NCBI GenBank assembly: GCA_964624765.1
Contig: CAZUZO010000002.1
Coordinates: forward strand, 15,495 to 79,494
Reading direction: 5' to 3'
DNA from: an uncultured Thiotrichales bacterium
Lineage (GTDB): Bacteria; Pseudomonadota; Gammaproteobacteria; HK1
DNA length: 64,000 bases
Shown here: piece by piece, positions 13,173 through 55,600 of the stretch
Layout: the number at the start of each line of letters is the position of its first letter
Position numbering within the stretch: the first letter of the stretch is position 1
Made by a program: the position numbers and the translations under genes
The notes under the pieces: model-generated
Seen by the model: the letters and a program-made list of their open reading frames with translations, nothing else
Database searches by the model: none
Told to the model about the DNA's origin: nothing

Positions 13173-13184
13173 TTATAGGCGGAT

Positions 13185-27413: not shown

Positions 27414-27420
27414 CCCCTGA

Positions 27421-27854: not shown

Positions 27855-27876
27855 GGAAATGATCGGCGTAAACTCA

Positions 27877-28017: not shown

Positions 28018-28022
28018 TCAGC

Positions 28023-29895: not shown

Positions 29896-30582
29896 ATGAG
29901 CATCAAGTGTGTTACGTTCGATTTGGACGATACGTTGTGGGATTGTGAACCGGTGCTCGCGCGTGCCGAGGCGGTACTGTACGACTGGTTGGCTTGTAAT
30001 TATCCGCGAGTGGTCGATCGCTATTCCGCGGGCGAGTTGACTGCCCATCGTAAGGACTACGTCTCGCGTTATCCGCAGCTGCAGCATGATATCACGTTGC
30101 TGCGAAAGCAGTGGCTGACCTTTATTCTTACCGAATCCGATTATGATCCGGAGTCTGTCGAGACCGGATTCAAGCTATTTTGGCTCGCGCGTAACGAGGT
30201 GGCTCTATTTGAAGGTGTCCGGCAGGTGCTGAACGCGCTGCAGGGTGTGTATCTTTTGGGTGCCATTACCAACGGCAACGCCGATGTTTATCACATCGGA
30301 ATCGGCCACTACTTTGATTTCGTGGTGACAGCGGCGGAGGCAGGCGTCCCCAAGCCCAATGCGCGGATCTTTCAGCTGGCGCTGGCGAAGGGCCGCGTGC
30401 GAGCAGAGGAAACGGTGCATGTGGGCGACGATCCGCAGCGCGACGTCATGGGTGCTGGGGCGGTGGGTATGCGCACAGTCTGGATCAATCCGCACCGACG
30501 AGCCTGGGACGGTACGGAAACCCCCGATGCGGTGATCTCGTCTGTCACGCAATTGGGTGCAGTGCTGGAATCTTGGACATAA
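29896..30582 (+). CDS. HAD-IA family hydrolase
   Basis: Motif I VTFDLDDTLW, a late motif VGDDPQRDVMGA, and a cap domain between them. Confidence 0.85.
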   Translation: MSIKCVTFDLDDTLWDCEPVLARAEAVLYDWLACNYPRVVDRYSAGELTAHRKDYVSRYPQLQHDITLLRKQWLTFILTESDYDPESVETGFKLFWLARNEVALFEGVRQVLNALQGVYLLGAITNGNADVYHIGIGHYFDFVVTAAEAGVPKPNARIFQLALAKGRVRAEETVHVGDDPQRDVMGAGAVGMRTVWINPHRRAWDGTETPDAVISSVTQLGAVLESWT

Positions 30583-30602
30583 TCTTGGGAGTTCAAAGCA
30601 TT

Positions 30603-30836
30603 ATGGCTATTCGGGTCCGTTACTTTGCTAGCTTGAGGGAGCGCATGGGGCGAGCCGAGGATCGCCTGGACGTGGGACGGATCACCACGGTGGAGGACGT
30701 CTGGCGCAAAGTTTCGGGTGAAAGGGCTTTGCCGGCGAACACGCTCATGGCGATCAATATGCAATATGCAGACAGCACTCAGCGGGTCTGCGACGGAGAC
30801 GAAGTGGCCTTTTTTCCGCCGGTGACGGGGGGCTGA
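30603..30836 (+). CDS. moaD: MoaD/ThiS-family sulfur carrier (molybdopterin synthase small subunit-like)
   Basis: MAIRVRYFASLRERMG...DGDEVAFFPPVTGG ends in the diagnostic GG. The track ORF start at 30573 overlaps the HAD gene, so ATG 30603 is preferred. No moaE is adjacent. Confidence 0.8.
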   Translation: MAIRVRYFASLRERMGRAEDRLDVGRITTVEDVWRKVSGERALPANTLMAINMQYADSTQRVCDGDEVAFFPPVTGG

Positions 30837-30966
30837 GAGGTTGTGAAAAAACCGTAGCGAGCGGCCCGAGAGCAAGGCGGAACGCTGTTCAAAATCGTGC
30901 CAGACGATTTTGTCGCCGCCGTGCGCCTTGCTCTGCCGGCGCGCGCGACAGTTTTACAACAGCTTG
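30837..30966. mobile_element. hybrid type-2/type-1 element, near-perfect 130-bp palindrome
   Basis: Left half has the type-2 terminus and core arm (GAGGTTGTGAAAAAACCGTAGCGAGCGGCCCGAGAGCAAGGCGG). The centre is a CAAAATCGT-GCCAG-ACGATTTTG hairpin. The right half is the reverse complement of the type-1 left end (GCGCCTTGCTCTGCCGGCGCGCGCGACAGTTTTACAACAGCTTG). It fills exactly the gap between the moaD stop (30834-30836) and the kinase stop (30967-30969). Confidence 0.85.
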
Positions 30967-32262
30967 TTAGGGGTGATTGGTGACGAGCCGGCCGGTTGTT
31001 GAGCCTAGACGATCGATTAGGATGGCCACAAAGGCTTGATAGAAGCGGTGCTGACAATGCGCTGAGGTGGCATTGAGGAGCCCTGTGTTGACCCGCAGCG
31101 CTGAGACGCGGGTTTGCGCGATCACGTTAGCACTGCGCTTTCGTTTACCTAACGCGCCCATTTCGCCGAAGCAATCCCCAACACTCAGGGTCGCGATGGT
31201 AGCCTCGCCTCGTCGCACGAGGACGCTTCCGGAGGCAATGATAAAGAAGTCTGCGGCAGTCTCCCCTTCTAGGAGGATGTTCACCCCCGCCGCGAATTCC
31301 TGCCAGGTGCTGGCATGGATTACCTCGGCTATCTCAGAGCGCGAGAAATCCGTAAAGAAACGAAGTTTCGCGATGCGCTCGAAGGAGGTCTGGTCGGTTA
31401 GCTTTTTGCTCCGGCGCCGAGAGCTGTCTAACACGAGGCTGAGATCTCCGGCCAAATCCATACCAGTCTTGTAGCGGTCTTGTGGATGCTTTTGCAGTGC
31501 TCGATGCAGGATTCGTCCTACCAGGGGCGAGACATCGGGCCTTAGAGCTTTGACCGATTGGGGGTGCTCGTGAAGGATGCGATGCGCGATGGAGGCCAGG
31601 GTATGGCTGGCGAAAGGATGCTGGCCCGTGAGTAGCTCGTACATGACGACGCCGAGGGAGAAGAGGTCGGTTTGCGGGTTGACGATCTCCTCGCGTACCT
31701 GTTCTGGTGACATATATAGTGGAGAGCCGACATAGCCCAAGAACTGGGTGTTGGTGACATCGAGCTGAGAGGCGATGGCGATGCCAAAATCCCCGATTTT
31801 GACGTCTTGGGATTCGGTCAGCAGAATATTTCTCGGCTTGATGTCGCGGTGAACGACTCCATTTCGGTGGGCGTAGTCCAGTGCCACGGCGCAGTTTCGG
31901 ACGGCGTTGATGACGTCTCTAATGGGCAGCAGGCTAGCGGGTTGACAGTGCGCTTGCAGCGTACGCCCCCCTGGAATGTATTCCATGACAAGGTAGTAGA
32001 GGTCGTCGACGATGCCTGCGTCATAGACGGAAACGATGTTGGGGTGTTGCAGTATCTTGGCGATCTTGGCCTCATTGAAGAAAAGCTTACGGTAGCGTTC
32101 GCCCTCCTCAGCGTGATGCAGGACTTCCGGATGGGCCACCTTGATCGCGACCTCCTGATGGGTTAAGGGATCGTGGCCGAGGTATACGCTACCCATATTC
32201 CCGCGCCCGATTGGTTTGACGATAAAGTACTGCCCAAGGGTGCGGTTTTCTAAGCCTTCCAT
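30967..32262 (-). CDS. Ser/Thr protein kinase with C-terminal cyclic-nucleotide-binding domain
   Basis: Kinase motifs GRGNMGSVY, AIKV, HRDIKPRNIL, DFG and SPEQ. The C-terminal CAP_ED-like domain contains GDCFGEMGAL. The track ORF starts at TTG 32406, but ATG 32262 (MEGLENRTLGQY) is preferred. Confidence 0.85.
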   Translation of the reverse strand: MEGLENRTLGQYFIVKPIGRGNMGSVYLGHDPLTHQEVAIKVAHPEVLHHAEEGERYRKLFFNEAKIAKILQHPNIVSVYDAGIVDDLYYLVMEYIPGGRTLQAHCQPASLLPIRDVINAVRNCAVALDYAHRNGVVHRDIKPRNILLTESQDVKIGDFGIAIASQLDVTNTQFLGYVGSPLYMSPEQVREEIVNPQTDLFSLGVVMYELLTGQHPFASHTLASIAHRILHEHPQSVKALRPDVSPLVGRILHRALQKHPQDRYKTGMDLAGDLSLVLDSSRRRSKKLTDQTSFERIAKLRFFTDFSRSEIAEVIHASTWQEFAAGVNILLEGETAADFFIIASGSVLVRRGEATIATLSVGDCFGEMGALGKRKRSANVIAQTRVSALRVNTGLLNATSAHCQHRFYQAFVAILIDRLGSTTGRLVTNHP

Positions 32263-32597
32263 GGTCTTTGGTGGATATCCGAGAGAGGGTGAGGAGGGGC
32301 TGATTTGTGACAGCGCAGCGGGTCGAACGCCATGGCGCGTGGTCGATAACGTGATTGAGAAGGGTACGGGATGGCCCTCGTTAGCCGATTGACCTGGATC
32401 GGCCAAAGAGGGGGGCTGCCGAGCGTCGCGACCGCCCCTCGGCTAGATGCCGCCAGGGCGAGTACAGCGTGTTGGCCCATAATGGCTAAGTGGGGAATAG
32501 GCTGCGGGGAAGCCATGCTAGCGACGTTGAGGATTTCTGGGTGACGTCCTATAGGTTTTGAATCGTCGCGCCATCGAATCACAGAAGAGGATTTTAT

Positions 32598-39266: not shown

Positions 39267-40667
39267 ATGTTTAAGTGTTGGGTTGGGGTCTGCAAGCAAC
39301 CCCTGGCTTTCCTCCTGGCAACGACGATGGCATGGGCAGCCCCGCTGGTATTTGCCGAAGAGGCCGAAGAGGCCGGAGCGGTACAGGAGTTCGTGCTGAA
39401 GAACGGTCTCAAGGTCATCGTCAAAAAAGATCATCGCGCTCCGGTTGTGGTCACGCAAGTTTGGTATAAGGTCGGGTCAGGCCATGAGCATGGGGGTATT
39501 ACCGGAATTTCGCACATGTTGGAACATATGATGTTCAAGGGCACCCACAAGTTTGGGCCAGGAGAATTTTCACGCATCATCGCCGAGGAAGGGGGTCGCG
39601 AGAACGCTTTTACGAGCTACGATTACACGGCCTACTTCCAGAGTCTGGAGAAAAGTCGACTAGAGGTGAGCTTCGAGCTAGAAGCGGATCGGATGCAAAA
39701 TCTCAAGCTATCGTCGGAAGCGCTGGCCTTGGAAAAGCAGGTGGTGATGGAGGAACGGCGATTGCGTACCGATGATGATCCACAAAGCCTCAGCATGGAG
39801 CACTTTCGGGCGGTGGCGTTCAAGAATAGCCCCTATCGGAACCCCATCATCGGGTGGATGACAGACATCGAAAGCTATCGGATCGAGGATCTGGAAAGCT
39901 GGTACCGTCAGTGGTATGCCCCCAATAATGCCGTGGTGGTAGTGGTAGGGGATGTGGACCCAATGCAGGTCAAGGTGCTGGCCGACAAGCACTTTGGCCC
40001 GTTACCTGCGGCAGACCTGCAGGCGATCAAGCCTCGCCGGGAAGTCTCTCAACTGGGTCCCCAGCGTATCAAGATCTACCGTCCAGCGCAGGTGTCTTAC
40101 CTGTTGCTGGGCTACCAGGTGCCCTCTGTGGCCACTGCCGAGATCGATTGGGAACCCTATGCCCTCATGGTACTGGCGGCCGTCTTCGACGGAAACGATG
40201 GGGCGCGGTTCAGCAAGAACCTGGTGCGCGGTCGGCACCTGGCGGCCGAACTGACGGTGGATTACGGCCTCTATGACCGCGAGTCTACTTTATTTGTCAT
40301 CGCCGGACGCCCGACTCCGGGAACGGAGGTCGATGCCCTCGAGGCCGCTATCCGGGAGGAGATTGCCGGCGTGCAACGGGAGGTGGTGAGCGACGAGGAA
40401 CTGGAACGGATCAAGATCCGGGTGGTTGCCGAGGACGTTTACGCGAGGGATTCACTGTTTTATGAGGCGCTGCAGCTGGGGCAATTGGAGGCAGTCGGTT
40501 TGGGTTGGCAACGCCGTGAGGAGTTTGTCGATCGAATCAAATCAGTGACCGTCGAACAGGTGCAAGCCGTGGCCAACAAATACCTCCTGGAGCAAGGCTC
40601 GACGGTGGCGGTACTGAAACCGCAGGCCCTACAGGAACCAACGGAATCAAAGAACGGTAACCGATAG
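39267..40667 (+). CDS. M16 family zinc peptidase (active subunit, HxxEH)
   Basis: Signal peptide, then GISHMLEHMMFKGT (inverted zinc motif). Confidence 0.9.
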   Translation: MFKCWVGVCKQPLAFLLATTMAWAAPLVFAEEAEEAGAVQEFVLKNGLKVIVKKDHRAPVVVTQVWYKVGSGHEHGGITGISHMLEHMMFKGTHKFGPGEFSRIIAEEGGRENAFTSYDYTAYFQSLEKSRLEVSFELEADRMQNLKLSSEALALEKQVVMEERRLRTDDDPQSLSMEHFRAVAFKNSPYRNPIIGWMTDIESYRIEDLESWYRQWYAPNNAVVVVVGDVDPMQVKVLADKHFGPLPAADLQAIKPRREVSQLGPQRIKIYRPAQVSYLLLGYQVPSVATAEIDWEPYALMVLAAVFDGNDGARFSKNLVRGRHLAAELTVDYGLYDRESTLFVIAGRPTPGTEVDALEAAIREEIAGVQREVVSDEELERIKIRVVAEDVYARDSLFYEALQLGQLEAVGLGWQRREEFVDRIKSVTVEQVQAVANKYLLEQGSTVAVLKPQALQEPTESKNGNR

Positions 40668-40678
40668 GACGAAGCCTC

Positions 40679-42073
40679 ATGTACATCCAATTCCTTTGGC
40701 CGGTGCTGTTGGCTTTGGCTCTCCTGAGCGGCCCCACTTTCGCTACACCGACCATTCAGCATTGGACCACAGCCAATGGCGCCCGAGTGTACTTCGTGGC
40801 TGCCCACGAGCTGCCTCTGGTGGACATGAGGCTGGTATTCGATGCCGGTAGCGCTCGCGACCAGGACCTTCCGGGGCTAGCACGGTTCACGAATTTGATG
40901 CTGCAAGAGGGTGCCGGCCCCCATGATGCGGATACCGTTGCGGAGCGTCTAGCGGCGTTAGGTGCCGAGCTGACTACCGACTCGGGACGGGACATGGCCT
41001 GGGTCAGCCTGCGGGTTTTGAGTGATCCGGTGGTTCGGGATCCAGCCGTTGAGCTGCTGGGGCTGATCGCCGCCCAACCCGCTTTGACAGCGGAAGCGCT
41101 GAGGCGGGTGCGCGGACAGCTGCTCGTAAAGTTGCGAGCCGAGCAACAATCCCCGGCCGATGTGGCCAGTCGTGCCTTCTACACCCATGTTTTTGGCGAT
41201 CACCCCTACGCATTGCCACCGAGCGGGACGGAGGCGAGCATTTCGGCCATCGAGGTGTCTGATCTAAAGCGATTTCACCAGCGCTACTATGTGAGCCAAA
41301 ACACGGTGGTGGTGATCGTCGGTGATCTGGATCGGGCACAGGCAGAGTTGCTGGCTACCAGGGCCGTTGCCAAGCTTTCTTCAGGTGAGCCTGCCTCGGC
41401 ACTGCCCGCAGCGCCTTCCGTCGAGGCGTCGAGCGAGCGTTCTATCGACTTCCCCTCGGCGCAAACACATATTCTCGTGGGCCAACCCGCCATATCGCGG
41501 CTGCATGACGATTACTATGCGCTTTATGTGGGCAATCACGTCCTTGGAGGCGGGGGCCTCGTATCGTTGCTATTCGAAGAGATACGGGCACGTCGAGGGT
41601 TAGCCTACAGCGTGGGGAGCTACGTCATCCCGATGCGCGCCGAAGGACCTTACATTATGGGTTTGCAGACGCAAGGAGAGCAGGCGGCCAAGGCCGTGGA
41701 GTTGATGCGGGGGTTGCTGAAGGATTTTGTGAAAAAGGGTCCGACAGCGGAACAGCTGCAAGCGGCGAAGAAAAACATCACCGGCGGTTTTCCCCTTCGC
41801 CTCGACAGCAATCACAAGATACTGGGCCATGTGGCCACTATCGGTTTCTACGGATTGCCACTTGATCACCTTGACACGTTTTCTGCGCGTATCGACGCGG
41901 TCACGGTGGAGGACGTGCGCAGCGTTTTTGCCCGCCATATCGATCCGCAGCGGTTGGTCACCGTCATGGTCGGACCGAGCGGAGGCGCAAGTGTCCCATC
42001 GTCCAAGGCTAGGGAAGTCGGTATTCCGGCTAACCACGGACATTCGATCCCGAGGGATTTCATCGAGCAGTGA
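40679..42073 (+). CDS. M16 family peptidase-like protein (no HxxEH; likely non-catalytic partner)
   Basis: 464 aa with signal peptide and M16/M16_C fold-like sequence. It is paired with the upstream gene. Confidence 0.9.
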   Translation: MYIQFLWPVLLALALLSGPTFATPTIQHWTTANGARVYFVAAHELPLVDMRLVFDAGSARDQDLPGLARFTNLMLQEGAGPHDADTVAERLAALGAELTTDSGRDMAWVSLRVLSDPVVRDPAVELLGLIAAQPALTAEALRRVRGQLLVKLRAEQQSPADVASRAFYTHVFGDHPYALPPSGTEASISAIEVSDLKRFHQRYYVSQNTVVVIVGDLDRAQAELLATRAVAKLSSGEPASALPAAPSVEASSERSIDFPSAQTHILVGQPAISRLHDDYYALYVGNHVLGGGGLVSLLFEEIRARRGLAYSVGSYVIPMRAEGPYIMGLQTQGEQAAKAVELMRGLLKDFVKKGPTAEQLQAAKKNITGGFPLRLDSNHKILGHVATIGFYGLPLDHLDTFSARIDAVTVEDVRSVFARHIDPQRLVTVMVGPSGGASVPSSKAREVGIPANHGHSIPRDFIEQ

Positions 42074-42214
42074 GAGCTTGTGAAAAAACCTGCTACACAG
42101 CCCGATAGCGGCGTTGGGCGGTGCTCGCTCCTCGCCTATCTATTTGATATGTCTCGTCGCTGCGCGCCGTCCGCCTTGCTTTCGTGCCGCTCGCGACGGT
42201 TTTTTCACAAGCTC
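42074..42214 (-). mobile_element. type-2 inverted-repeat element (141 bp, perfect 17-bp termini)
   Basis: GAGCTTGTGAAAAAACC...GGTTTTTTCACAAGCTC. Flanked by TGA 42071-42073 (the stop codon of the M16 gene) and TGA 42215-42217. Confidence 0.9.
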
Positions 42215-42270
42215 TGAGTGCTGAGCCAAACCGGTGTCGCCGTGCGAAAAGTGTGTCGCCCGCAGGGGAA

Positions 42271-42873
42271 ATGTCGGTGAAACGGCAGGCCTCGGGCCGA
42301 GTCCGCATTATTGCGGGTCAATGGAAAAGAAGACATCTCGTATTTCCGGCGCGCCCGGCGCTACGCCCGACACCCGATCGCGTCCGAGAAACGCTGTTCA
42401 ACTGGCTCGGGCCGCAGGTGCAAGGCGCACGCTGTTTGGATCTCTTTGCCGGGAGCGGTGCGCTTGGCTTTGAGGCAGCCTCGCGAGGGGCGAGCCATGT
42501 GGTGATGGTGGAGCGAGATGAGGCTCTGATCCACTACCTCAGCGCGCAAGCCCTGGCCCTGGATGCGAACAATGTGGCAGTGATGGGCGAGGACGTTTTG
42601 CGTTGGTTGCAACGCAAGCGCCCGGTAGCACTGGCACCATTCGACCTGGTATTCATCGATCCGCCGTTTAGGAGCGAGCTTTGGACGCTGCTGTGTGGCT
42701 ATTTGGAGCAGGGCAGCTGGCTCCAAGATGGGGCGCTGGTATACCTAGAGAGGCCTTGGAGTAGGGCGCAGCCAGTATTACCCGCCAACTGGGGCTTGAC
42801 ACGGTCCGGACGCGCTGGCCAAGTCGGTTATTATCTGTGCAGGCGATGCCCAGGGCCTCGCGTTTCCGATTGA
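42271..42873 (+). CDS. rsmD: 16S rRNA (guanine966-N2)-methyltransferase RsmD
   Basis: GRVRIIAGQWKRRHLVFPARPALRPTPDRVRETLFNWL, DLFAGSGALGFEAASRGA, FIDPPF. AGGGGAA precedes ATG 42271. The track ORF start lies inside the repeat. Confidence 0.85.
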   Translation: MSVKRQASGRVRIIAGQWKRRHLVFPARPALRPTPDRVRETLFNWLGPQVQGARCLDLFAGSGALGFEAASRGASHVVMVERDEALIHYLSAQALALDANNVAVMGEDVLRWLQRKRPVALAPFDLVFIDPPFRSELWTLLCGYLEQGSWLQDGALVYLERPWSRAQPVLPANWGLTRSGRAGQVGYYLCRRCPGPRVSD

Positions 42874-42901
42874 TGTTGCGTACTCTACCCTACCGCCTTA
42901 A

Positions 42902-43762
<861 letters not shown>

Positions 43763-43829
43763 TTTTGGCGGTCGGTGAAGGGCGTCTCTGGGCAGGCAGT
43801 ATGCTCTCTTCAGTGGGGCGATGACGTGC

Positions 43830-44645
43830 TTAGCGCTGGCAGTGAGGGCAATAGAAGCTAGAACGTTGCCCGATGCGGGCATGCAGGAGGGTTCGTCCGC
43901 AGCCTTCGCAGGCTTGCCCGCTGCGGCCGTACACCCGTAGACTTTGGCTAAAGTAACCAGGTTGGCCGATGCTGTTGACAAAGTCACGCAAGCTGGTGCC
44001 GCCAGCCGCGATGGCATCTTCTAAGACCTGCTTGATGGCGATGCTCAGGCGCTCATAGCGCGGCTTGGAGATCCGATGCACAGGACGGGCAGGATGAATC
44101 CCTGCTAGGTAGAGCGCTTCATTGGCGTATATATTACCGATCCCCGCGACCACTTGACTGTCCATGATGAACGACTTGATGGCCATTCGTCGGCCTCGCG
44201 ATCGATGGTGCAGGTACTGACCATGGAACGGGTCGCTGAATGGCTCCGGGCCCAGTTTGGCGATGAGGGGATGGGTGCGGACATCCCTCCTCGTCCATAG
44301 GATCGCGCCGAATCGGCGCGGATCCCGTAGCCGTACACAGTGACCGTTTTTTAGCACCAGATCGACATGGTCGTGTTGGTTGGGTGATGAGCCCAACTCC
44401 GCCATGCGCAGGCTTCCGGACATTCCCAGATGAATGATGACGGTGCCGTCGGGGGTTCTGAGCAGAAGGTATTTGGCGCGGCGGTCGACTTGCTCAATGG
44501 TCAGGCCAGGTAGTTCCAGCGCCAGCTCCGTGGGTACCGGCCAGCGCAATCTTGGCTGCCTAACGTTTACCGCAACGATTTGCTGCTGGGTCAGGAAAGG
44601 GGAGAGTCCGCGACGGGTTATTTCAACTTCTGGAAGCTCAGGCAT
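43830..44645 (-). CDS. mutM: formamidopyrimidine-DNA glycosylase
   Basis: MPELPEVE..., H2TH, and C-terminal zinc finger CEGCGRTLL...YCPHCQ. Confidence 0.95.
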   Translation of the reverse strand: MPELPEVEITRRGLSPFLTQQQIVAVNVRQPRLRWPVPTELALELPGLTIEQVDRRAKYLLLRTPDGTVIIHLGMSGSLRMAELGSSPNQHDHVDLVLKNGHCVRLRDPRRFGAILWTRRDVRTHPLIAKLGPEPFSDPFHGQYLHHRSRGRRMAIKSFIMDSQVVAGIGNIYANEALYLAGIHPARPVHRISKPRYERLSIAIKQVLEDAIAAGGTSLRDFVNSIGQPGYFSQSLRVYGRSGQACEGCGRTLLHARIGQRSSFYCPHCQR

Positions 44646-44853
44646 CGGGTGTGATCTGCCTGCGGCATCTGGGCCGCTTGCTCTTTATGAGGTGGACTGT
44701 ACTCACGGGCTGATGTCAAAGACCAGGGCATAATGGGTAGGCTCGCTTGGTCTAGGTTAGCTGGTTTATCGCCGTGGGTCATCTCGGCCATTTGCTTACC
44801 TTTGCCGTTGGTTCCGACATCTGCCGCATACACCCTTGCACCGCGATGGGTTT

Positions 44854-44918
44854 GGCTGCCGAAGGCTTGGGGGTGAGGCGCTGCAAAAAGATGGCTTAGG
44901 GAAATGATGAAGATCGCC
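44854..44918 (+). repeat. type-3-related segment
   Basis: GGCTGCCGAAGGCTTGGGG (44854-44872) is identical to 4809-4827. GAAATGATGAAGATCGCC (44901-44918) resembles the type-3 terminus. Confidence 0.5.
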
Positions 44919-45403
44919 GATTTAGCACCTCGGCATAAACTGGGGCGAGGAGGATTCGGAAGCGGTCAAAACGATATCGCAGACCTCTAGCACATGAGAG
45001 CTGCGCAGATTGTCGCTTGTGCTTTGGTGGCAGTGTTGGATACTCTTAGAGGGCACCCCGTGGCCAGCTGAAGGATTCTTTCGGGTGTGGTCTTGGTGGC
45101 TGTGGCTCTCGTCCATCCATTTAACCTAAGAGGGGAGAGTGCAGAATAGTGAGTGCTTGGAGTTGCCCCCACGAGATTCGATGTGGATGTATGAGGGTTA
45201 AGGGGAGGGCCTGTGATCCGGGGATGAAAGGCTGTGTGCTTTATGGACGGTTCTTTTTCAGCAACGAAGCAAAGAACCGTCGTCAGAGGACGGGGCCGCA
45301 GGATCAAGGGGAGGGGAGTAAACAGCAGCGCAAGCTGTTGTAGCATCGATCGATCAGAGGGATCCCTGGACATCGCCTGCTGCAGGTGTGCTTATCGAAA
45401 AAC

Positions 45404-45970
45404 ATGACGCTGGTGCGCACATCTTTCCACACTCAAACGTTCTGGCTAGGAGCGTTGGTGGCCGTGTCCCTTTTTCTCGGGGGATGCGCAACTCGAGTTC
45501 CTGCTCCACTGCGTGATATCCCCTCCCCGGAAGTGAGTGTAGCCCAGGTAAGGCAAGATACTGAGAAATTTATCGGCACACGCGTTCGATGGGGGGGCAG
45601 TATAGCAGTCGTCGAAAACCGTTCCTCGGAAACGCTAATAGAGATCGTTTCTCAGCCGCTGGATCGCGATGGCCGGCCACAGCTTACTCGCGCGACGGGT
45701 GGTCGGTTCCTTGCCGAGTTCCCGGACTTCCTCGATCCCTTGATCTATGGGGAGAGGCGTCAGCTCACTGTCGTGGGCACTCTTCGGGGGGAAGTGACGC
45801 GAAGGATCGGTGACTATGAGTACGCCTTTCCGGTCGTGGCAGTCGAATCCCATTACCTTTGGGAACGGGTGACTTACCCCTCCCCAGCCCCCATTGACTG
45901 GTGGCGATACGATTGCTGGCCGTATCCCTACTCTCGATATGCTTGGCCCTTTGGCCCCTATTGCTGGTAG
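45404..45970 (+). CDS. slp: Slp family outer-membrane lipoprotein
   Basis: Lipobox LGGC. VRWGGSI...ETLIEIVSQPLDRDGRP...GRFLA...YEYAFPVV follows the Slp pattern. Confidence 0.8.
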   Translation: MTLVRTSFHTQTFWLGALVAVSLFLGGCATRVPAPLRDIPSPEVSVAQVRQDTEKFIGTRVRWGGSIAVVENRSSETLIEIVSQPLDRDGRPQLTRATGGRFLAEFPDFLDPLIYGERRQLTVVGTLRGEVTRRIGDYEYAFPVVAVESHYLWERVTYPSPAPIDWWRYDCWPYPYSRYAWPFGPYCW

Positions 45971-46094
45971 CTGTACAAGGCCAGAGCGACCGTTTTAGAC
46001 CCTTCCCTCCACTCAATCTCGCACCCTGGGGTTGCATGCCGTGATGGTAGGACTCTAATCACCCGCCGCACAAGCTCCAACACAAAAGGCGTAC

Positions 46095-46310
46095 GAAGCT
46101 GTTTTAAAAATGTCACGAGCGCCGGCAGAGCAAGGCGCACAGCGGCGACAAAATCGTCTGGAACGATTTTGAACAGCTGCAAGCTGGCCCCGAAGGGGCG
46201 AGCCCCAAGGATGGGGCGAGTCACCACCGGAGTGTACAAGGGAGTACAGAGGATGGCGAGCCGCTGCGCAACGCAGCTGAGGCAAGCGCAGTAGTTTTTA
46301 AAACAGCTTC
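46095..46310 (+). mobile_element. type-1 inverted-repeat element, long form (216 bp)
   Basis: Full architecture. Flanks are TAC (46092-46094) and TAA (46311-46313). It ends 24 nt before the transporter ATG. Confidence 0.9.
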
Positions 46311-46334
46311 TAAGGTACGGCCAGCGGAGGCGGT

Positions 46335-47582
46335 ATGCTGTTACAGGGGCTTCTCGGATTGATTGTCATCATCGGTACCGCTTGGCTGATGAGCGAGGAT
46401 CGTCGTGCGATACCGTGGAGACCCGTTCTCGGGGGGCTCGTGCTGCAGTTCGCTCTAGCGACGCTGCTCCTTAAAGCGCCGTTATTCTACGCGGTTTTTT
46501 CCCAGCTTCATGACATCCTGTTGTCTTTGATTGAGGCCACTCGTGCCGGAACGAGCTTTGTTTTCGGATTTCTGGGGGGTGGACCGTTCCCTTTCGAGGC
46601 GACCCATCCCAGCGCAAGCTTTGTGCTGGCCTTTCAGGCCTTGCCGCTTATTCTAGTCATGAGCGCGCTTTCGGCATTGCTTTTCTATTGGCGCATATTG
46701 CCGTTGGTCGTCAGGGGGTTTGCATTACTGCTGCAGAAGACCCTTGGTATCAGCGGTGCAACCGGCCTCAGTGCGGCAGCCAATGTGTTGCTCGGTATGG
46801 TGGAAGCTCCGCTGCTAGTGCGTCCTTATCTCGAGCGACTGACGCGCGGGGAGCTATTCATGTTGATGAGCTGCGGTATGGCGACCATCGCTGGCACGGT
46901 CATGGTGCTTTATGCCAGTATCCTGGTGGAGGTCATCCCTGGGGCTATGGGGCACCTGCTCAGCGCATCAGTGATCAGTGCGCCCGGCGCGATCGTTATC
47001 GCTGCGTTGATGGTCCCGCCGGGTACCGAGGATCCGAACGGCAACCCCGTCACCATCGAACTGCCGGCCAGCAGCAGCATGGATGCCATCACGCTTGGCA
47101 CCCTGCAAGGGATCAATCTGGTTCTCAATGTTGCCGCCATGCTGATCGTCTTGATAGCCTTGGTGAGTCTTGCGAATCAATCCTTGGCGTTGCTTCCGCC
47201 CATCGGTGATGCACCGATTACCCTGCAGCGCATTCTAGGTTGGGCGATGGCACCTTTGGCTTGGCTGTTGGGTATTCCATGGCTGGAGGCGGCGACAGCA
47301 GGCTCTCTGATGGGAACCAAGCTGGTCCTCAACGAACTGATCGCCTATATCGAGCTCGCGCAACTCTCGCAGGAAGCACTGAGTGATCGAAGCCGCCTCA
47401 TCATGGTCTATGCGATGTGTGGGTTCGCTAATCTCGGTAGCCTGGGGATTCTTATCGGTGGCCTTGGCTCGATGATTCCAGCTAGGCGAAAGGAGATCGT
47501 GAGTTTAGGCCTAAAGGCTGTCCTCGCAGGGACCCTGGCCACTGGCTTGACAGCGCTGATAGTTGGCCTCTATCACCTTTGA
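46335..47582 (+). CDS. NupC/NupG-family (CNT) nucleoside transporter
   Basis: 415 aa, polytopic. GGAGG precedes the ATG. The N- and C-terminal CNT domain pattern includes SFVFGFLGG and LNELIAYIEL. Confidence 0.85.
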   Translation: MLLQGLLGLIVIIGTAWLMSEDRRAIPWRPVLGGLVLQFALATLLLKAPLFYAVFSQLHDILLSLIEATRAGTSFVFGFLGGGPFPFEATHPSASFVLAFQALPLILVMSALSALLFYWRILPLVVRGFALLLQKTLGISGATGLSAAANVLLGMVEAPLLVRPYLERLTRGELFMLMSCGMATIAGTVMVLYASILVEVIPGAMGHLLSASVISAPGAIVIAALMVPPGTEDPNGNPVTIELPASSSMDAITLGTLQGINLVLNVAAMLIVLIALVSLANQSLALLPPIGDAPITLQRILGWAMAPLAWLLGIPWLEAATAGSLMGTKLVLNELIAYIELAQLSQEALSDRSRLIMVYAMCGFANLGSLGILIGGLGSMIPARRKEIVSLGLKAVLAGTLATGLTALIVGLYHL

Positions 47583-47725
47583 GAAGCTGTTTTAAAAATG
47601 TCACGAGCGCCGCCAGAGCAAGGCGCACGGCAGCGAGAAAGCGGAGTGTACAAAGGAGTACATGAGCATTTCGAGCTGCCGCGCAACGCAGCTCAGGCAA
47701 GCGCAGTCATTTTTAAAACAGCTTC
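47583..47725 (+). mobile_element. type-1 inverted-repeat element, short form (143 bp, perfect 18-bp termini)
   Basis: Begins immediately after the stop codon TGA 47580-47582. TGA is repeated at 47726-47728. Outside the 74-nt length difference it differs from 23952-24168 by only 2 substitutions. Confidence 0.9.
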
Positions 47726-47822
47726 TGAGGGCTCTATCAGGAACGGCTGGACGGAGGTAATGAGGTCGCAAGGCGAAACGGCGTTGATTTGGGCAGGCAT
47801 GTTGACCGAAGATTCGGAGTAA

Positions 47823-48284
47823 ATGGCCACTATGTTGATGCAAGGAGCGCTAAGAGTGCCCCTCTTAGGGATTGGCTGGGGGTTAGTCGTACTCGCCTCT
47901 ATTCTAAGCTGCAGCGGCCTGACGCAGAAAGAGCGTTATGTCAAACTCCAGCGCAGTGTCGAGAGTTATGCGAGTGACATCCGTTGGAACCGCCTTGATG
48001 CGGCACTGAATTACATCGCAAGAAAGGATCCGGGGGCTTCCCCGGTGGACCCGGCGCGTCTTGAAGGATTTCGTATCACGGGGTATGAGCTGGGGGCGGG
48101 TCGGCTGGCGGAGGATAGCAAGGAAGCGTCAGTCGTCGTCACCTTTACTTATTACGATACGGACTCGGGGCGATTGCGGAACCTATCCGACCTCCAACAC
48201 TGGTGGTTCAACGATTCGCTGGGACGTTGGTTCCTGGACGGCGATCTCCCGAATTTTGTTCGAGAGGGGCATGAATCGAACTAG
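47823..48284 (+). CDS. hypothetical lipoprotein
   Basis: Signal peptide with lipobox (LASILSC). No family recognised. Several possible starts lie between 47823 and 47856. Confidence 0.6.
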   Translation: MATMLMQGALRVPLLGIGWGLVVLASILSCSGLTQKERYVKLQRSVESYASDIRWNRLDAALNYIARKDPGASPVDPARLEGFRITGYELGAGRLAEDSKEASVVVTFTYYDTDSGRLRNLSDLQHWWFNDSLGRWFLDGDLPNFVREGHESN

Positions 48285-48372
48285 ATCCCCCGGCCGTCGT
48301 CATTATGAGGAGTCATGATTCGGTTTTCCTCGCCTTCATTCTCGGAGCGGGCGAGGATCGGCCCCTTACATT

Positions 48373-48399
48373 AAGCGCAGTCGTTTTTAGAACAGCTCC
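48373..48399 (+). repeat. type-1 right-end fragment
   Basis: AAGCGCAGTCGTTTTTAGAACAGCTCC followed by TGA. Confidence 0.45.
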
Positions 48400-48489
48400 T
48401 GAGCGCCGCCCGCGCGCTCCGAAAGAGCATCCCTGTCGCCACGATGCCCATGGCTGCTGAGATCATAGCGTTGAGGCCTTTTGGTAAGT

Positions 48490-50076
48490 ATGCAGTCCAA
48501 TTCGATTTCTGATGAACTCGCCCGGCGGCGCACGTTCGCGATCATTTCTCATCCAGACGCTGGCAAAACGACTCTGACGGAGAAGCTGCTCCTGTTAGGC
48601 GGAGCCATTCAGCTTGCTGGTACCGTGAAAGGCCGCAAGGCAGCACGGTATGCCACCTCGGACTGGATGGCCTTGGAGAAGCAGCGGGGCATCTCGGTCA
48701 CCTCTTCGGTGATGCAGTTCGAGTATCAAGGTCGGATCATCAATCTTCTCGACACCCCCGGCCACGAGGATTTTTCTGAAGATACCTATCGGACACTCAC
48801 CGCCGTCGATGGCGCACTCATGGTGATCGATAGCGCGAAAGGGGTTGAGGAAAGAACCATCAAACTCATGGAAGTGTGTCGGCTTCGAACGACGCCGATC
48901 ATGACCTTCGTTAACAAGCTCGATCGGGAGGGTCGCGAACCGATTGAGATCATGGATGAGGTCGAACGAATTCTCGCTATTCATTGTGCCCCGGTGACTT
49001 GGCCGATCGGTCGCGGTACACATTTTCGTGGAGTGTATCATCTGTTAGACGATCGGGTGCGCCTGTTTCTGCCCGAGAAGGGTCAACGTCGCCGTGAGAG
49101 TCGAGTGATTGTTGGGCTGCACAATCGATTGCTCGATGAGGTACTGGGCGATCAGGTAGCCGAAATTCGAGATGAAATTGAGTTGGTTCGAGGGGCTGGG
49201 CGCGCCTTCGATCCCAAGGAATACCTGGCCGGCCTGCAGACGCCTGTTTTCTTCGGCTCTGCCTTAAGTCATTTCGGCGTCCAAGAACTCCTTGAAAGCT
49301 TCGTGAAATACGCGCCGTCCCCCCAGCCGCGAGAAGCGAGAGAGCGTCAGGTACTGGCCAGTGAGGAGAGTTTTACGGGTTTCGTATTTAAGATTCAGGC
49401 CAATATGGATCCGCAGCACCGCGACCGGGTAGCCTTCGTGCGTGTGACGTCCGGCTGCTATCGGCAAGGAATGCGACTGCATCATGTCCGCGTTGGACGG
49501 GATATCCAAGTGGGGGCTGCGCTCACCTTTATGGCGAGTGAGCGGGAACGGGTGGGAGAAGCCTACCCGGGTGATATCATTGGGTTGCACAATCACGGGA
49601 CCATAAAGATCGGGGATACCTTTACCCAGGGCGAACAGCTGAACTTTATCGGTATCCCGAATTTTGCGCCTGAGCTTTTCGTTCGTGTCGTGCTGCGGGA
49701 TCCCCTACGAATGAAGGCGTTGCAAAAGGGCGTGAGTCAGCTCAGTGAGGAGGGAGCGACGCAGGTTTTCCGTCCGCTTATGAGCAATGACATCATTTTG
49801 GGTGCGGTCGGAACGCTGCAGTTTGATGTGGTGGCTTTTCGACTCAAGCACGAATACGGTGTCGAATGCACGTATGCGCCAGTCAATCTCTACTCTGTTC
49901 GCTGGATTGAGGCCAAGGACCTGAAGAAGTTGGAGGATTTTCGTGACCGCAATGCGGCGAGACTGGCCTTGGATGGAGGCGGCAACCTGGCCTACTTAGC
50001 GCCTAATCGGGTTAACCTGGATCTCGCTATTGAGCGCTGGCCCGACATCGCCTTTCTGGCAAGCAGAGAACACTGA
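48490..50076 (+). CDS. prfC: peptide chain release factor 3
   Basis: [39 protein letters not shown] 48490 is preferred over the track TTG 48481. Confidence 0.95.
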
Positions 50077-50094
50077 GCGGCGCGCAGCCGTCCG

Positions 50095-50850
50095 TGGCGC
50101 ATGAGCTTGTTGTTAGCACTGGCCCTCCTGCACGTCGCTCTTGCGGCCCGGTACATACCTCACCTGCCGCGCATCCACAACCTAGACTTCCAGGCCCCGT
50201 GGCTCCAGCACTTCATAGACCGGGATCCCATACACCGCCGGTGGATTCCAGCGCCACCCCTCGACCCCGCAGGCCAACCGCCGGTCGGCCATTGCACTGC
50301 GATCGTTGGTCATCGTCCCGAACCCCCGCCCCGGATCGTCCGTGACGTGCCGTCCGACCGCTACCCAGTGGCCCGATGCCCCTACATCTTGGCGCGTTTC
50401 GCCTGGGCGAACAGCAGCTTGTCCAAGGGTTGGGCCAGCACCTCCTTGAACAGGAACACCAGCGCGTTCAACGCCAGGTTCTGGGTGCTGGCCCGCGACC
50501 TTGCTCTCCACGGCGAGATGGTCCAAGAACCGCTCGATAGCGGCCGGTGACACGTCCTGCACCTGCTGCTCGTGACAGAACCGCAGAAAGCGCCGGCACC
50601 AGTCCCCATACGAGCGTTCCGTGCGAATCGAGTACTGCCGGGCGCGGAGCGTGCGCACCAGGGTCGCAAGGAGTACATCGGTGTCCGCGGAAGCCGGGAC
50701 CGCGCGGCCCGAGGTCCTGCCGCCTCACCCGCCAACGGAAGGTCCCGGGCAAGCGTCGGATGCTCGGGTGGCCGCCCGCGGCTCCCTTCCTTCCACCAAG
50801 CCCAATCGACCCGCGCGGCTGCCGGCACGTCCGCAAGCTCCTTTTTCATA
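50095..50850 (-). pseudogene. decayed, 3'-truncated tyrosine recombinase (integron-integrase / XerD-like N-terminal half)
   Basis: Two minus-strand frames carry, in order: RARQYSIRTERSYGDWCRRFLRFCHEQQVQDVSPAAIERFLDHLAVE, then (frameshift) ASTQNLALNALVFLFKEVLAQPL..AKRAK, then EVLEPRGLEV*VVDARQVRYVPGRKSDV (compare LRV.D.D....I.VR.GKG.KDR). There is an in-frame stop, and the catalytic C-terminal half is absent. Confidence 0.6.
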
Positions 50851-51056
50851 TCCGATATCTATCTATCTATGTTGGAAGAAGTCGCTTCAGCGGACGGCTA
50901 ACCGCCGCCGCTGAGCTTTGGCGTTATCGCGCCGGGACAAGCTCGGCGTATCTTACGGGGTGAGAGTCCCCGTTGGGAAAGGGTTAGCGGCTCCCCATAT
51001 CGAGTGTTGGACCTGTGGCGGAGCACCCAAGTGGTAAGGAGGACTGCGAGAGGAGC

Positions 51057-51265
51057 GAACAAAACAGGTTAAGCGTACACAGAGAATCCTGTAGCGCGTA
51101 GCGGCGACAAAAGCGTCAACGACTTTGAACAGCGTTAAGCTGGCCCCGAAGGGGCGAGCCCCAGGGATGGGGCGAGTAACCCCCGGAGTGTACAAGGCAG
51201 TACAAGTATGGCGAGCCGCTGCGCAACGCAGCTCAGGCAAGCGCAGTCGTTATTAAAACAGCTTC
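51057..51265 (+). mobile_element. type-1 inverted-repeat element, long form with scrambled left end
   Basis: From GCGGCGACAAAAGCGTCAACGACTTTGAACAGC onward it aligns with the other long copies. The right end is ...GCAAGCGCAGTCGTTATTAAAACAGCTTC followed by TGA. Confidence 0.8.
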
Positions 51266-51345
51266 TGAGTCAAGCCGAAACAGATGTCGTCACAGCGTGC
51301 CTTGCGTCAAAGGGCAGGCTGCAGTCCCATAAGAAAAGCTGAGAA

Positions 51346-51368
51346 GTGCCGAAACGGTGACCATCGTC
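51346..51368 (+). repeat. type-3 motif, solo copy
   Basis: GTGCCGAAACGGTGACCATCGTC. Confidence 0.5.
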
Positions 51369-51391
51369 TATGACTTTTGGGGAGATTTGCC

Positions 51392-52012
51392 GTGTCGAGT
51401 TTCAAACAGAAGGCGCGAATACTCACGAATGGACTCGTGGCAAGTTGTCTATTCGGCGCGACTATGGTGACTGGGGATATGGGCTTCCAAGAGGTTTATG
51501 CTGCGCCACCGCCTTGGGCTCCCGCCCACGGTTATCGACACAAGCACGGTGCTGGGCATCATTACGTTGCACATCCGCAGCCCGTTTACCATCATGCCGA
51601 TGTCGGCATCCCGTATGGCACCTGTCATCGCCATGCGGTGGGGGCTATCCTCGGCGGCGTTGTCGGCGGTGTGGCGGGTGCCCAGGTGGGAAGGGGAGAC
51701 GGCAAGACTGCTGCGACCATTGCGGGAACACTGCTTGGCGTACTGATCGGCAGTCATGTTGGCCGCACCATGGATCAAGCCGATCGCTACTGCACGGCGC
51801 AGGTGCTGGAGCAAGCCGCCGATCGTCAATCCATCGTGTGGCACAATCCAGAAGCGCAGGCGGAGTACCGCGTTACGCCGGTGACAAGCTATACCCAGCA
51901 GGGGCAATACTGTCGGGAGTATCTAACGGAAGCTGAGGTTGGGGGTGTTCCCCAGCAGGTGTATGGGACGGCTTGCCGTAGCCCCGATGGCGCCTGGCAG
52001 ATCGTGAATTAG
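51392..52012 (+). CDS. glycine-zipper surface-antigen-like protein (17-kDa antigen / COG4520-like)
   Basis: GGGGAG lies 7 nt before GTG 51392. Signal peptide, His-rich segment, glycine zipper AVGAILGGVVGGVAGAQVG...IAGTLLGVLIG, and C-terminal YCREY...G.ACR.PDG.W motif. Confidence 0.75.
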   Translation: MSSFKQKARILTNGLVASCLFGATMVTGDMGFQEVYAAPPPWAPAHGYRHKHGAGHHYVAHPQPVYHHADVGIPYGTCHRHAVGAILGGVVGGVAGAQVGRGDGKTAATIAGTLLGVLIGSHVGRTMDQADRYCTAQVLEQAADRQSIVWHNPEAQAEYRVTPVTSYTQQGQYCREYLTEAEVGGVPQQVYGTACRSPDGAWQIVN

Positions 52013-52343
52013 GGCGGCTACTCGACTCACCGCTCGGTGTTGCAGCACGTATCGTGGGCCTGCCGAGACGATGCCCGGGCGCCAACACTCCATAGGAACC
52101 CACCTTAAATCTATCCTACGACACAGTCCTTTGCTTCACCCAAGTCGCTGCAGGAGTTCGCGAGAACTCCCCGGCGGCTTCCCCGGCATACCTCCTTTTG
52201 CACTGCGGAAAGTCAGCAAATTGTGAACACGTTCGGGTCGGGGAGACCTTCGATCTGGCAACCCCTCCTACGCGCGGGGGTGAGGTGACATTTTATGCTT
52301 GATTCCGCGCCGAAGCCGTTCTCCGCGAAGCGGTTCCGTCCAA

Positions 52344-52557
52344 CAAGCTGTTTTAAGAGTGTCGCGAGTACTGGCAGAGCAAGGCGCACGACGGCGACAA
52401 AATCGTCTAGAAGGATATTGAACCGCTGGAAGCTGGCCCCGAATGGGCGAGCTCCAAGGATGGGGCGAGCAACTACCGCAGTGCACAAACGGGTACAGGA
52501 TTATGAGCCGCGGCGCACCGCCGCTCAGGCAAGCGCAGCAATTTTTAAGACAGCTGC
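52344..52557 (+). mobile_element. type-1 inverted-repeat element, long form, most divergent copy (214 bp)
   Basis: CAAGCTGTTTTAAGAGTGTCGCGAGTACTGGCAGAGCAAGGCGCAC...GCAAGCGCAGCAATTTTTAAGACAGCTGC, followed by TAA. Confidence 0.85.
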
Positions 52558-52578
52558 TAAACGATGGCCATGGCCGCC
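52557..52578 (+). repeat. type-3 motif directly abutting the type-1 right end
   Basis: CTAAACGATGGCCATGGCCGCC. Confidence 0.5.
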
Positions 52579-52635
52579 TGCGTTAGTTAGGCCTATTATC
52601 TGCCTCGGAGTGAACCCAAGCCGCTGTTTACCGTC

Positions 52636-55600
52636 TTGAAAATAGGGATCTCTGTAGCGGGAAGCAAAACACTCGGACCCATACCGTCTCATTGGCCTAG
52701 ACTGAGCGAGCCCATGCCAGCTGGACCTCTAGCACAGAGTCGCTTGCAAATCAGCGAATCGGCCTGCCGGTGGACGGTGCGGGCCATGTCTATCCTGCGC
52801 CGGCATCTCGGTGTAAATGTGCGGTTGCACCACCGGGAAGGCCAGCTGGAAACGGGCCAAATCTTCCTTTTCAATCATTTTGCTCGCTTCGAAACGTTCA
52901 TTCCTCAGTACCTGATCTACCAGCAGACCGGTGCCTACTCGCGCTCTATTGCCGCTGCTGAGCTGTTCGCAGCCGATGCCGCGTTCGCCAATTACCTCAT
53001 GAAGGTCGGAGCGGTGCCCAACAACCATCCTCGGTTGTTGCCTTTCTTAGCCGAGGAGATCTTGCGCGGCCGTAAGGTGATCGTGTTTCCGGAAGGTGGA
53101 CTGGTCAAGGATCGCCGGGTATTGGATCGCCGCGGACGCTATAGCATCTACTCCAATTCGGCGGCGAAACGGCGCAAGCATCACGCCGGTGCCGCGGTTC
53201 TGGCCCTGGTGCTGGATGCCTTGAAGAGCGCATTGCAGGCCTTCTACGTCGCCGGTGATACCCGCACGCTGCAGCATTGGATGCAACAGCTCGGGTTCGG
53301 AAGCGTCGAGACCCTGCTGGCAGCCGTGCAGCGCCCCACGCTGATCGTTCCGGCCAATATCACCTTCTATCCACTGCGGGCCGGCGATAATGCCTTGCGC
53401 AGGGGGTTTGAGCTGCTGAAGAAGGGCCTCAGTGAATCCTTCTCGGAAGAGCTACGCATCGAGGGGAACATTCTGCTCGAGCGCACCGACATGGATGTGC
53501 GGATCGGTGATCCGGTCTCACCAAAGGTATTGTGGCATGATTGGGAGCGCAGGCTTGCAGCGCGTGTGGTGCGCCACAGTGATTCCCTGGATGCCCTGTT
53601 TGTCTCGCACACCCAACGGAATCGGTGGGACGATGGCCTATTTGCCCGCCAAGTCCGGCGATACTCGCGTGAGCTGAGGGATCAATGCATGCGCCAGATG
53701 TATACCGGTGTCACCGTGAATTTGAGCCACCTCGCGTCGCGGCTCATTCTCGCTTTGCTTGAGCAAGGCACGACAGAAGTACCCAAGGCTTTGTTTCACA
53801 AGAGCCTTTATCTTGCGATCAAGAACGTCCAGCCGGAGCCCTCGCTCCATCTTCACGATAGTCTTATGCAGGCTGAGACGGCTGGGCAGGTGATGGCCGG
53901 TACCTGCACCGATTGGGTCGAGTTCTTGAGCTGGGCCGTGGCAGCGGAGCTGGTGCAGGTGGATCCCGAGCACTATCGTTTCCTACCCAAGTTAACGCAA
54001 GAGCAGGCATTTCATCGCGTACGGCTGGAAAACCCGATCGCCGTCTACGCCAACGAGTTGGCGCCGGCCTCGGCCGCCGTGAGCGCGGTCGACCGAGCGC
54101 TACGCGCGGCGAGCAAACTGGATGAGCGGTCATTCGCAAAGTTGATGTTCGCAGACGAGTGCGCGACCTACGCCGATGATAAGCAGACTTTTTCCCAGCC
54201 GCACCACCAAGAGATCAACCAACAGCAGACGGCGACAGAATCCGGCGCCCCCTACCTGCTCCTTCCGAAGCGGCGCGGTGTGGTGGGTGTGGTTCTCATC
54301 CACGGCTTGCTGGCTTCCCCGGCGGAGTTACGTGCACTGGCAGAGAAGCTCCATGCGGCGGGTTATCCTATCATGGGGGTGCGCCTCAGGGGACACGGCA
54401 CTTCGCCCTGGGACCTCAACACCCGTCGTTGGCAGGATTGGTTGGATTCGGTGCACCGTGGCTACCAGATCGTTTCCGCTCTGGCAGACAGGGTCTGCCT
54501 GCTTGGGTTTTCGGTCGGCGCCGATCTGGCTCTCCGCTACGCGGCGCAACAACCGCCGAGGCTGGCCGGTGTGGCCGCGGTCTGTCCACCCCTGAAGTTC
54601 CGCAACCGCAACATGATGCTCGTGCCGCTGGTACATGGGGCCAATCAACTGATTCGCTGGAGTTCGGTGGGTGACGGACCGATGCCTTTTAGCGTGAATG
54701 TCTCGGAGCATCCGCACATCAATTATCGCCACATCCCCATTCGCGCGCTGCGCCAAGTGTCGCGCTTGGTGGGCGAGATCAAGCGCCACCTGCCGCAGGT
54801 GCACTGTCCGGTGCTGATTCTGCAGGCGAGTGACGATCCCGTGGTGGAGCCGAGCGGTGCGTTGCTGATCCATGAGCAGCTCGGTTCGTCGCTGAAGATG
54901 CTATACAGCGTGCCTGCAGACCGGCACGGTATTCTCCATGAGGTGACGCAGGGTACTTATGAGCGCCTTCAGGGATTTCTCGATTCGCTCACCAACCCCA
55001 GCATACGGCACAAGATCGGGCGTTCCCCCTGGTGGGGAAGTAAGCATCGGTGGCTTCGCGGTTATCCCCACGGCATCGACTGGGATGCAGCTATTCCTGC
55101 GAAACCGCTGGGTTTGATCTTTGAAGAGGCGGTTGCGCGGTTCGCCTCCCGTCCCTGCATCGATTTCCTCGGGAAGCGCTTTACCTACGCGCAGATCCAA
55201 ACCCTCGTCGACCGGGCGGCTAACGGTTTGCTGGCGTTGGGGGTTTGCCGCGGCACCAAAGTCGGGCTCTGTCTCCCCAACACCCCTTATTTCGTCATCT
55301 GCTATTACGCCGTGCTCAAGGTTGGCGGCACCGTGGTTAACTATGACCCCTTGTCTGTGGCGCGTGAACTGGCGTATCAGGTAGAGGATTCTCACACCGA
55401 CATCATCGTGACGGTCGATCTGCGCCAGGTGTATCCTAAGATCGCCGCGCTCATTGGCCGCACCCGGCTTCGGGCTGTGATCGTCTGTCGAGTCGGTGAT
55501 GTCTTGCCAGCGGTGCAGGGGGTACTGTTCGCTGCGCTTAAGCGCAGCGAACTGGCCTCGATTCCCACCGATCCGGAGCACATCCCCTTTTCCGACCTGG

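Follow-up and report, generated by a model that had tools for sequence, protein, structure and literature searches.

Short inverted-repeat elements of probable IS5/IS1031 type duplicate a TNA trinucleotide and often abut stop codons in an uncultured stromatolite gammaproteobacterium

The results support that the short repeated elements of this genome form an ordinary superfamily of IS5/IS1031-type MITEs, which make a true 3-bp duplication of TNA at the preferred target C-TNA-G. The window, that is the whole stretch of 64,000 nucleotides that was analysed (C2:15495-79494), belongs to a gammaproteobacterial MAG from a stromatolite metagenome, assembled into 3.39 Mb in 218 contigs with 59% G+C, and it was compared with two sister species of the same genus, G001 and G002. 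An NqrF search yielded hits at 67-74% only, spread over many orders. The whole explanation, to which we give a probability of about 85%, is that an IS5-family transposase of the IS1031 type acts on the elements in trans, that the insertion duplicates the 3-bp TNA and rebuilds stop codons, and that such insertions are frequent and tolerated. No new mechanism is needed for any of the observations. The superfamily has not been described previously and is very dense, taking up about 3% of the 3.4-Mb genome of this uncultured bacterium and occurring in its sister species as well, and its insertion chemistry can now be pinned down to a 3-bp duplication at C-TNA-G with an IS5/IS1031-type partner.

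Two families can be told apart by their ends. Family A has the ends GAAGCTGTTTTAAAA and is found in lengths of 143 and 217 bp; family B has the ends GAGGTTGTGAAAAAACC, a length of 141 bp and terminal inverted repeats (TIRs) of 17 bp. A sequence-only reading of the window had treated all copies as one set, and the TNA flanks that it described are real, but two families with different termini had been pooled. When up to two mismatches are allowed there are 479 A-type ends genome-wide, 88% of them preceded by TNA, and with up to three mismatches there are 589 A ends and 729 B ends, which gives about 600 elements for the two families together, spread through the intergenic DNA at about one per 5 kb. 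At 141, 143 and 217 bp the elements are too short for a transposase gene, and they are multicopy and bounded by TIRs, as is expected of MITEs. Their target-site duplication could be verified against empty sites, and an IS with common termini is present in the genome (contig C138), its match to family B being weaker than that to family A. Three of the 143-bp copies of family A, including the focal copy of the window, are 100% identical to one another, which argues for recent movement, and several others are 98-99% identical. An exact-pattern scan of a genome-contig collection for the A terminus plus core gave no match outside the source genome, and a genome similarity search found diverged copies of the elements in the sister species. 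Throughout the assembly about 90 A-type ends lie no more than 300 bp from a contig edge. Elements like these disrupt short-read assemblies, and they are a main cause of the fragmentation here.

Relatives of the family-A core (positions 22-110) were also seen in elements of another genus (G009; L004:1480-1640 and L024) and of another family (G039; L005), with 72-79% identity. The G009 elements with the A-like core have different termini (GGGGACCTCTAACAACC) and their flanks are not TNA, so the core module seems to pass between MITEs whose ends differ. A third repeat family, with ends of approximately GGCCATGGTCATCGTTTCG...CGAAACGATGGCC, was observed at C104:4120-4330, C4:40153-40509 and C7:34600-35470 of the source genome, lying inside a B copy as well as in other intergenic places. 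The B copies that lie inside this third family have atypical TCT/AGA duplications.

The focal element of the window is a 143-bp copy of family A at 47583-47725 with perfect 18-bp TIRs (GAAGCTGTTTTAAAAATG). The stretch 47580-47728 reads TGA, then GAAGCTGTTTTAAAAATG ... CATTTTTAAAACAGCTTC, then TGA, and the left copy of the duplication (47580-47582, plus strand) also serves as the stop of gene 46335-47582, which encodes a NupC-type transporter, the right copy being placed at 47726-47728 on the same strand. The product of this gene is 415 aa long and has nucleoside-transporter Pfam domains, including Nucleos_tra2. A family-B element at 42074-42214 (ends GAGCTTGTGAAAAAACC; 42071-42217 with its TGA/TGA flanks) is situated in the same way, its left TGA being the stop of the M16 peptidase gene 40679-42073. 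Identical flanks are also found around a 143-bp copy of family A (TTA/TTA, 13027-13175), a 217-bp copy of family A (TGA/TGA, 27418-27640) and a copy of family B (TCA/TCA, 27874-28020). At 23947-24171 a 217-bp copy of family A has TGA and two extra bases (GA) to the left and TGA to the right, and a short family-B copy at 16308-16435 is flanked by two TGA, the right one displaced by 1 nt. Another 217-bp copy of family A, with the imperfect flanks TAC/TAA, is located upstream of the transporter gene (46092-46313). Finally, a hybrid element, of type B at its left end and of type A at its right (30834-30969 with its non-identical flanks TGA and TTA) exactly fills, with positions 30837-30966, the gap between the stops of ORF 30573-30836 on the plus strand and ORF 30967-32406 on the minus strand. 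All the flanking trinucleotides that the sequence-only reading had listed, whether perfect, near-perfect or imperfect, were found at the positions it gave, and the stop codons that it recognised among them could be confirmed for ORFs 46335-47582, 40679-42073, 30573-30836 and 30967-32406 (minus). Its mini copy, said to use the stop codon 36427-36429 as a flank, turned out to be a decayed type-A fragment in which this TGA aligns within the remnant of the terminal repeat and is not a duplicated flank.

The NupC-type transporter gene sits between a 217-bp and a 143-bp copy of family A (46092-47728). The syntenic locus in G001 lacks this block of about 1.6 kb, with 315 bp in place of 1957 bp, and in G002 a MITE is found at the position of the block; a DNA-level match to the transporter gene was not found anywhere in either of the two genomes. 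We considered the possibility that 46095-47725 is a composite transposon carrying the transporter and rejected it, since the block is bounded on the outside by TAC and TGA and a perfect TGA/TGA already encloses the right copy.

To see how often the two flanks agree, the flanks of all paired elements were compared genome-wide with 10,000 shuffles of the right flanks, a comparison that the sequence-only reading had proposed and that came out clearly on the side of a duplication. The flanks are identical in 109 of 161 family-A pairs, the shuffled sets giving a mean of 31.8 (sd 4.9, max 51), and in 153 of 218 family-B pairs, where the shuffled mean is 71.3 (sd 6.2, max 95). It is conceivable that TNA instead constitutes the outermost bases of the inverted repeat, in which case it would be a part of the element and nothing would be duplicated on insertion; TNA is indeed a palindrome of its own kind (T..A), and it precedes nearly every end. 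The middle bases should then be complementary, for instance a left TGA with a right TCA. When only the pairs with TNA on both sides are counted, such reverse-complementary flanks are rare, 5 of 127 in family A and 10 of 164 in family B, and directly identical ones make up 108 and 146 pairs, respectively, which implies that the TNA is a duplication and not the tip of an inverted repeat. The empty sites described below, which have a single TNA, also speak against it, and we see practically no chance that the TNA belongs to the element. The middle base can be any of the four in family A, and in family B the trinucleotide is almost only TGA or TCA.

When the TNA is thus taken as duplicated host sequence, the original targets can be reconstructed. 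In 104 such targets of family A there is a C at position -1 in 77 and a G at position +1 in 69, from which the preferred site can be written as C-TNA-G. The element itself begins with G and ends with C, so that a 5-bp duplication of CTNAG needed to be considered as well. There are 54 cases (28 in family A and 26 in family B) with a host base other than C in front of the TNA, and in every one of them the element still ends in C; the mirror test had the same outcome with two exceptions. The duplication length is 3 bp and not 5.

Empty sites were found both between species and within the genome. The family-B element at 42074-42214 and one TGA were removed from the source genome and the reconstructed site was aligned to the orthologous regions of the sister species. 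It aligns to G001 and G002 across the insertion point with no gap, and each of them has one TGA (CCATGATGG and CCCTGATGG); in G001 this single TGA is the stop codon of the orthologous M16 peptidase. Comparing the MITE loci of the sister species back to the source genome is less rewarding, even genes being only about 75% identical, and the intergenic DNA is mostly too diverged or filled by other repeats. For the focal copy no empty site was found, the transporter gene being absent from the syntenic locus in G001 and G002, and of three other public contigs with a gene for the identical protein, from a stromatolite metagenome and a MAG, each is either occupied at the focal site or breaks inside the element.

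Within the genome, the flanks of every element with perfect flanks were joined and searched against the genome, and 24 candidates for a nested event came out. For at least 10 of them there are between 2 and 76 uninterrupted paralogues in which the trinucleotide occurs once (CTCAG/CTGAG), without a gap where the flanks meet; the most frequent junctions are GCAGCTCAGGCAA and TTGCCTGAGCGCG. In two places, C40:18806-19161 and C56:9191-9551, a 217-bp copy of family A is split by a B copy and reads ...CAGC TCA, then B, then TCA GGCAAG.... The CTCAG/CTGAG inside family A (GCAGCTCAGGCAAG) is a recurrent target for nested insertions of both families, examples from the genome as a whole being C40:18995-19128, C56:9224-9364 and C64:3677-3818. 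The single TNA that the sequence-only reading had predicted for unoccupied loci is therefore seen at the M16 site of the sister species as well as in uninterrupted paralogues.

In the mechanism that we propose, an IS5-family DDE transposase of the IS1031 type would move the MITEs in trans. It would bind the GA(A/G)(G/C)(C/T)TGT termini and make cuts staggered by 3 nt at the preferred C-TNA-G target, and repair of the gaps would leave the TNA duplicated on both sides. The sequence-only reading had suggested a search for IS5-family transposases whose ends match GAAGCTGTTT, and such an IS, with a TAA flank, was found in the source genome and in a sister species. At C138:1-868 lies an IS of about 873 bp within which the contig starts; on one side it reads TAA followed by GAAGCTGTTTGGAAAGTCGC, its end being GAAGCTGTTTGGAAA next to the TAA flank, and on the contig-edge side it reads ...TTTCCAAACA, the first part of the matching inverted repeat. 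Within its reading frames there are matches to DUF4096, DDE_Tnp_1 and DDE_Tnp_1_2 as well as to the NCBIfam model NF033580, 'IS5 family transposase', the latter with 130 bits at a cut-off of 110. The end matches that of family A at 13 of 15 positions, the first 10 bases being common, and the match to family B is poor. The interior does not match the MITE interiors, which implies that the MITEs are not simple deletion derivatives of this IS.

The C138 copy is the only assembled IS5-family copy of the source genome, and it has an out-of-frame start, an internal frameshift and a truncation by the contig edge. The 3-bp TNA repeat and an IS5-family DDE transposase with matching ends, as expected of an IS1031-type system, are both present, and an intact transposase was not seen in the assembly. 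Paired A-type ends 600-3500 bp apart enclose only host genes between neighbouring MITEs, and no transposase. In G001 there are at least 3 copies of an IS like that of C138, placed at contig edges, with 95-97% identity, the same ends and TAA on both sides. At C138:800-815 and in the G001 copies (L030, L033) an ATG followed by six or seven A is out of frame with the transposase in every copy, which could be due to sequencing error, to decay or to an expression that depends on slippage. A genome of a related genus, G009, holds about 45 copies of an 890-bp IS with the ends GA(A/G)CCTGTTCAAGATCT and a 280-aa IS5-family transposase that is 37% identical to the C138 product, and all 5 copies inspected have identical TNA flanks in a C-TNA-G context. 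From the 3-bp TNA repeat, the size and the termini, the resident IS is tentatively placed in the IS1031 subgroup and not in IS427. We infer that the MITEs are mobilised by this transposase or by an intact copy that the assembly lacks. Family B is nearly restricted to TGA/TCA and its ends match poorly, which suggests that a second, unseen transposase may serve this family.

The elements could also be moved by a transposase of another family, for instance by the product of an IS982-like gene, of which a remnant is present on contig C4, or by an enzyme of the IS630/Tc1 type. The assembly is without an intact IS5-type transposase, and the IS982-like remnant ends about 30 bp from a terminus that reads ...CGTTAAAACAGCTTC followed by TTA. 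This remnant is, however, surrounded by nested fragments, and the terminus has the appearance of a solo MITE end; elements of the IS630/Tc1 type duplicate TA, not TNA. The IS5-family copy on C138 agrees with the MITEs in its TNA flank and in the first 10 bases of its terminus, and the IS1031 group is the one documented for 3-bp TNA repeats (PMC12016507). A different transposase family is for these reasons very improbable. The IS982-like gene itself (C4:5060-5690; L016:1391-2019) is fragmented and split by another transposase fragment, near the solo A-type terminus, and the TTA at this terminus serves as the stop of a minus-strand gene for an ABC transporter of 424 aa.

The genes used to study the stop codons were called with a home-made procedure, a codon log-odds score followed by greedy removal of overlaps, which gave 2,913 genes and 81% coding sequence. 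For 384 paired elements the distance was measured from the element to the stop of the facing gene of at least 100 aa. In 56 cases the offset is 0 and the stop is the duplicated trinucleotide, 42 times TGA, 13 times TAA and once TAG at an imperfect flank. In another 13 the offset is +1 and the stop is always TAG, made up of the TA of a TTA duplication and the first G of the element. Any single offset between -40 and -5 has 0-4 cases (about 2), which is the background level. Any of the three stop codons can thus be restored where gene and element meet. Another 12 ORFs extend 10 or 13 nt into the element and stop at a TGA or TAA within the terminal repeat. In total, 18-22% of the elements, about one in five, use a stop codon, and about 80% are found elsewhere. 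Under the proposed mechanism, an insertion on a stop codon would rebuild the stop at the gene-side junction and leave the protein unchanged, since both TGA and TAA fit TNA, and TTA together with the first base of the element, G, includes TAG. Such insertions would be frequent, a target always being available at a stop, and well tolerated, which could account for the one copy in five that abuts a stop codon.

How large the excess is depends on the null model. If every TNA in MITE-masked intergenic space, stop codons included, is equally likely to be hit, 23.6 stop insertions are expected and 39 of 226 were observed, and when the sites are weighted by a target model for which all insertions served as training data, the expectation for the same 39 becomes 31.2. 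When the TAG register is included, 48 of 220 were observed as compared to 21.4 under the uniform model or 19.6 under a model trained on non-stop insertions only, and none of 5,000 simulations reached 48. The excess is accordingly 1.25-2.3 fold, and the expected numbers of stop hits (19.6 to 31) are approximate, as they depend on home-made gene calls and on how intergenic space was delimited.

The association with stop codons is genuine, but for the most part it is a side effect of the target rule combined with tolerance. The sequence-only reading had put it down to the neutrality of insertions at stops, an idea that is supported only in part: stops are used frequently, but most of this use is to be expected because TGA and TAA are by definition cases of TNA. 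The 1.25-2.3 fold excess that is left over may reflect selection rather than targeting, and it is compatible with the removal by selection of insertions elsewhere, in promoters and leaders. The regeneration of stops provides a simple rule for how elements can be packed so close to genes, where annotators should be prepared to meet them.

An adaptive explanation would be that the elements actively seek out stop codons or the 3' ends of genes, or that they are kept there as hairpins which stabilise the 3' end of the mRNA or terminate transcription. The focal 143-bp copy folds into one long hairpin of -74 kcal/mol with z = -10 on either strand, and on both strands the values are -74 to -75 kcal/mol (z = -10) for this form of family A in general and -63 to -66 kcal/mol (z = -6) for family B. 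Hairpins of -63 to -75 kcal/mol on both strands speak for this explanation, as does the hybrid copy that exactly bridges two convergent stop codons, and the excess of about 2.3 fold over the target-weighted null with non-stop training, 48 against 19.6 with 0 of 5,000 simulations, points in the same direction. Against this, the excess is only 39 to 31 with the target model trained on all insertions, about 80% of the copies are away from stop codons, and the same excess is expected from selection against promoter insertions. The U-run is paired within the stem, so that the fold is not that of a classical intrinsic terminator, and when positions 40000-53000 of the window were scanned for simple terminators there was no enrichment, so no terminator function is claimed. 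Taken together, we find an adaptive stop association unlikely. That the enrichment goes beyond availability and tolerance, with a machinery that favours gene 3' ends or with retention of a hairpin of about -70 kcal/mol that shapes mRNA 3' ends, is in our view quite doubtful; if true, the family would be a genome-wide, self-spreading 3'-UTR module.

Among the closest known systems is the IS1031 subgroup of the IS5 family, which prefers TNA and has an exclusive 3-bp repeat, and a member of which, ISLrh of Lacticaseibacillus rhamnosus, has the terminal repeat GAACCTGTCTAGTATCT (PMC12016507). The likeness includes the 3-bp direct repeat at TNA, an IS size of about 860-890 bp, an IS5-family DDE transposase (NF033580, DUF4096 plus DDE_Tnp_1) and termini that begin with GAAC/GAAG-CTGT (GAACCTGTCTAGTATCT in ISLrh, GAAGCTGTTTTAAAA in the elements described here and GAAGCTGTTTGGAAA in the resident IS). 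The C-TNA-G preference and the TGA/TCA restriction of family B are seen here and are not stated for the IS1031 subgroup in PMC12016507. Unlike IS1031 elements, the abundant copies here are 141-217 bp long and non-coding, with an interior unrelated to the IS. They resemble other IS5-derived bacterial MITEs such as BrickBuilt of Porphyromonas gingivalis, which are reportedly small, TIR-bounded, non-autonomous, multicopy and mostly intergenic; as compared to these, the density of about one per 5 kb is very high.

Abundant hairpin-forming MITEs of 100-150 bp that are co-transcribed with their neighbours also occur in Neisseria, as Correia/NEMIS elements (PMC2229807 for Correia), and in enterobacteria, as ERIC elements. 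Both kinds duplicate TA, not TNA, and are not known to have an IS5-type partner. The copy density of these systems is comparable to that found here and their termini are unrelated, and membership in the Correia/ERIC type was rejected, the duplication here being 3 bp of TNA and not TA.

Among eukaryotes, the PIF/Harbinger-Tourist MITEs and NuwaII of the PHIS superfamily have IS5-related transposases and 3-bp duplications, TWA in the case of PIF/Harbinger (PMC4482050). These belong to phylogenetically separate clades, and PIF/Harbinger also needs a second, Myb-like protein, which sets them apart from the elements described here. The target of NuwaII is nevertheless C-TNA-G, identical to the logo found in this genome, and where its authors left the choice between a 3-bp and a 5-bp duplication undecided (PMC4482050), the duplication made by the present elements is 3 bp.
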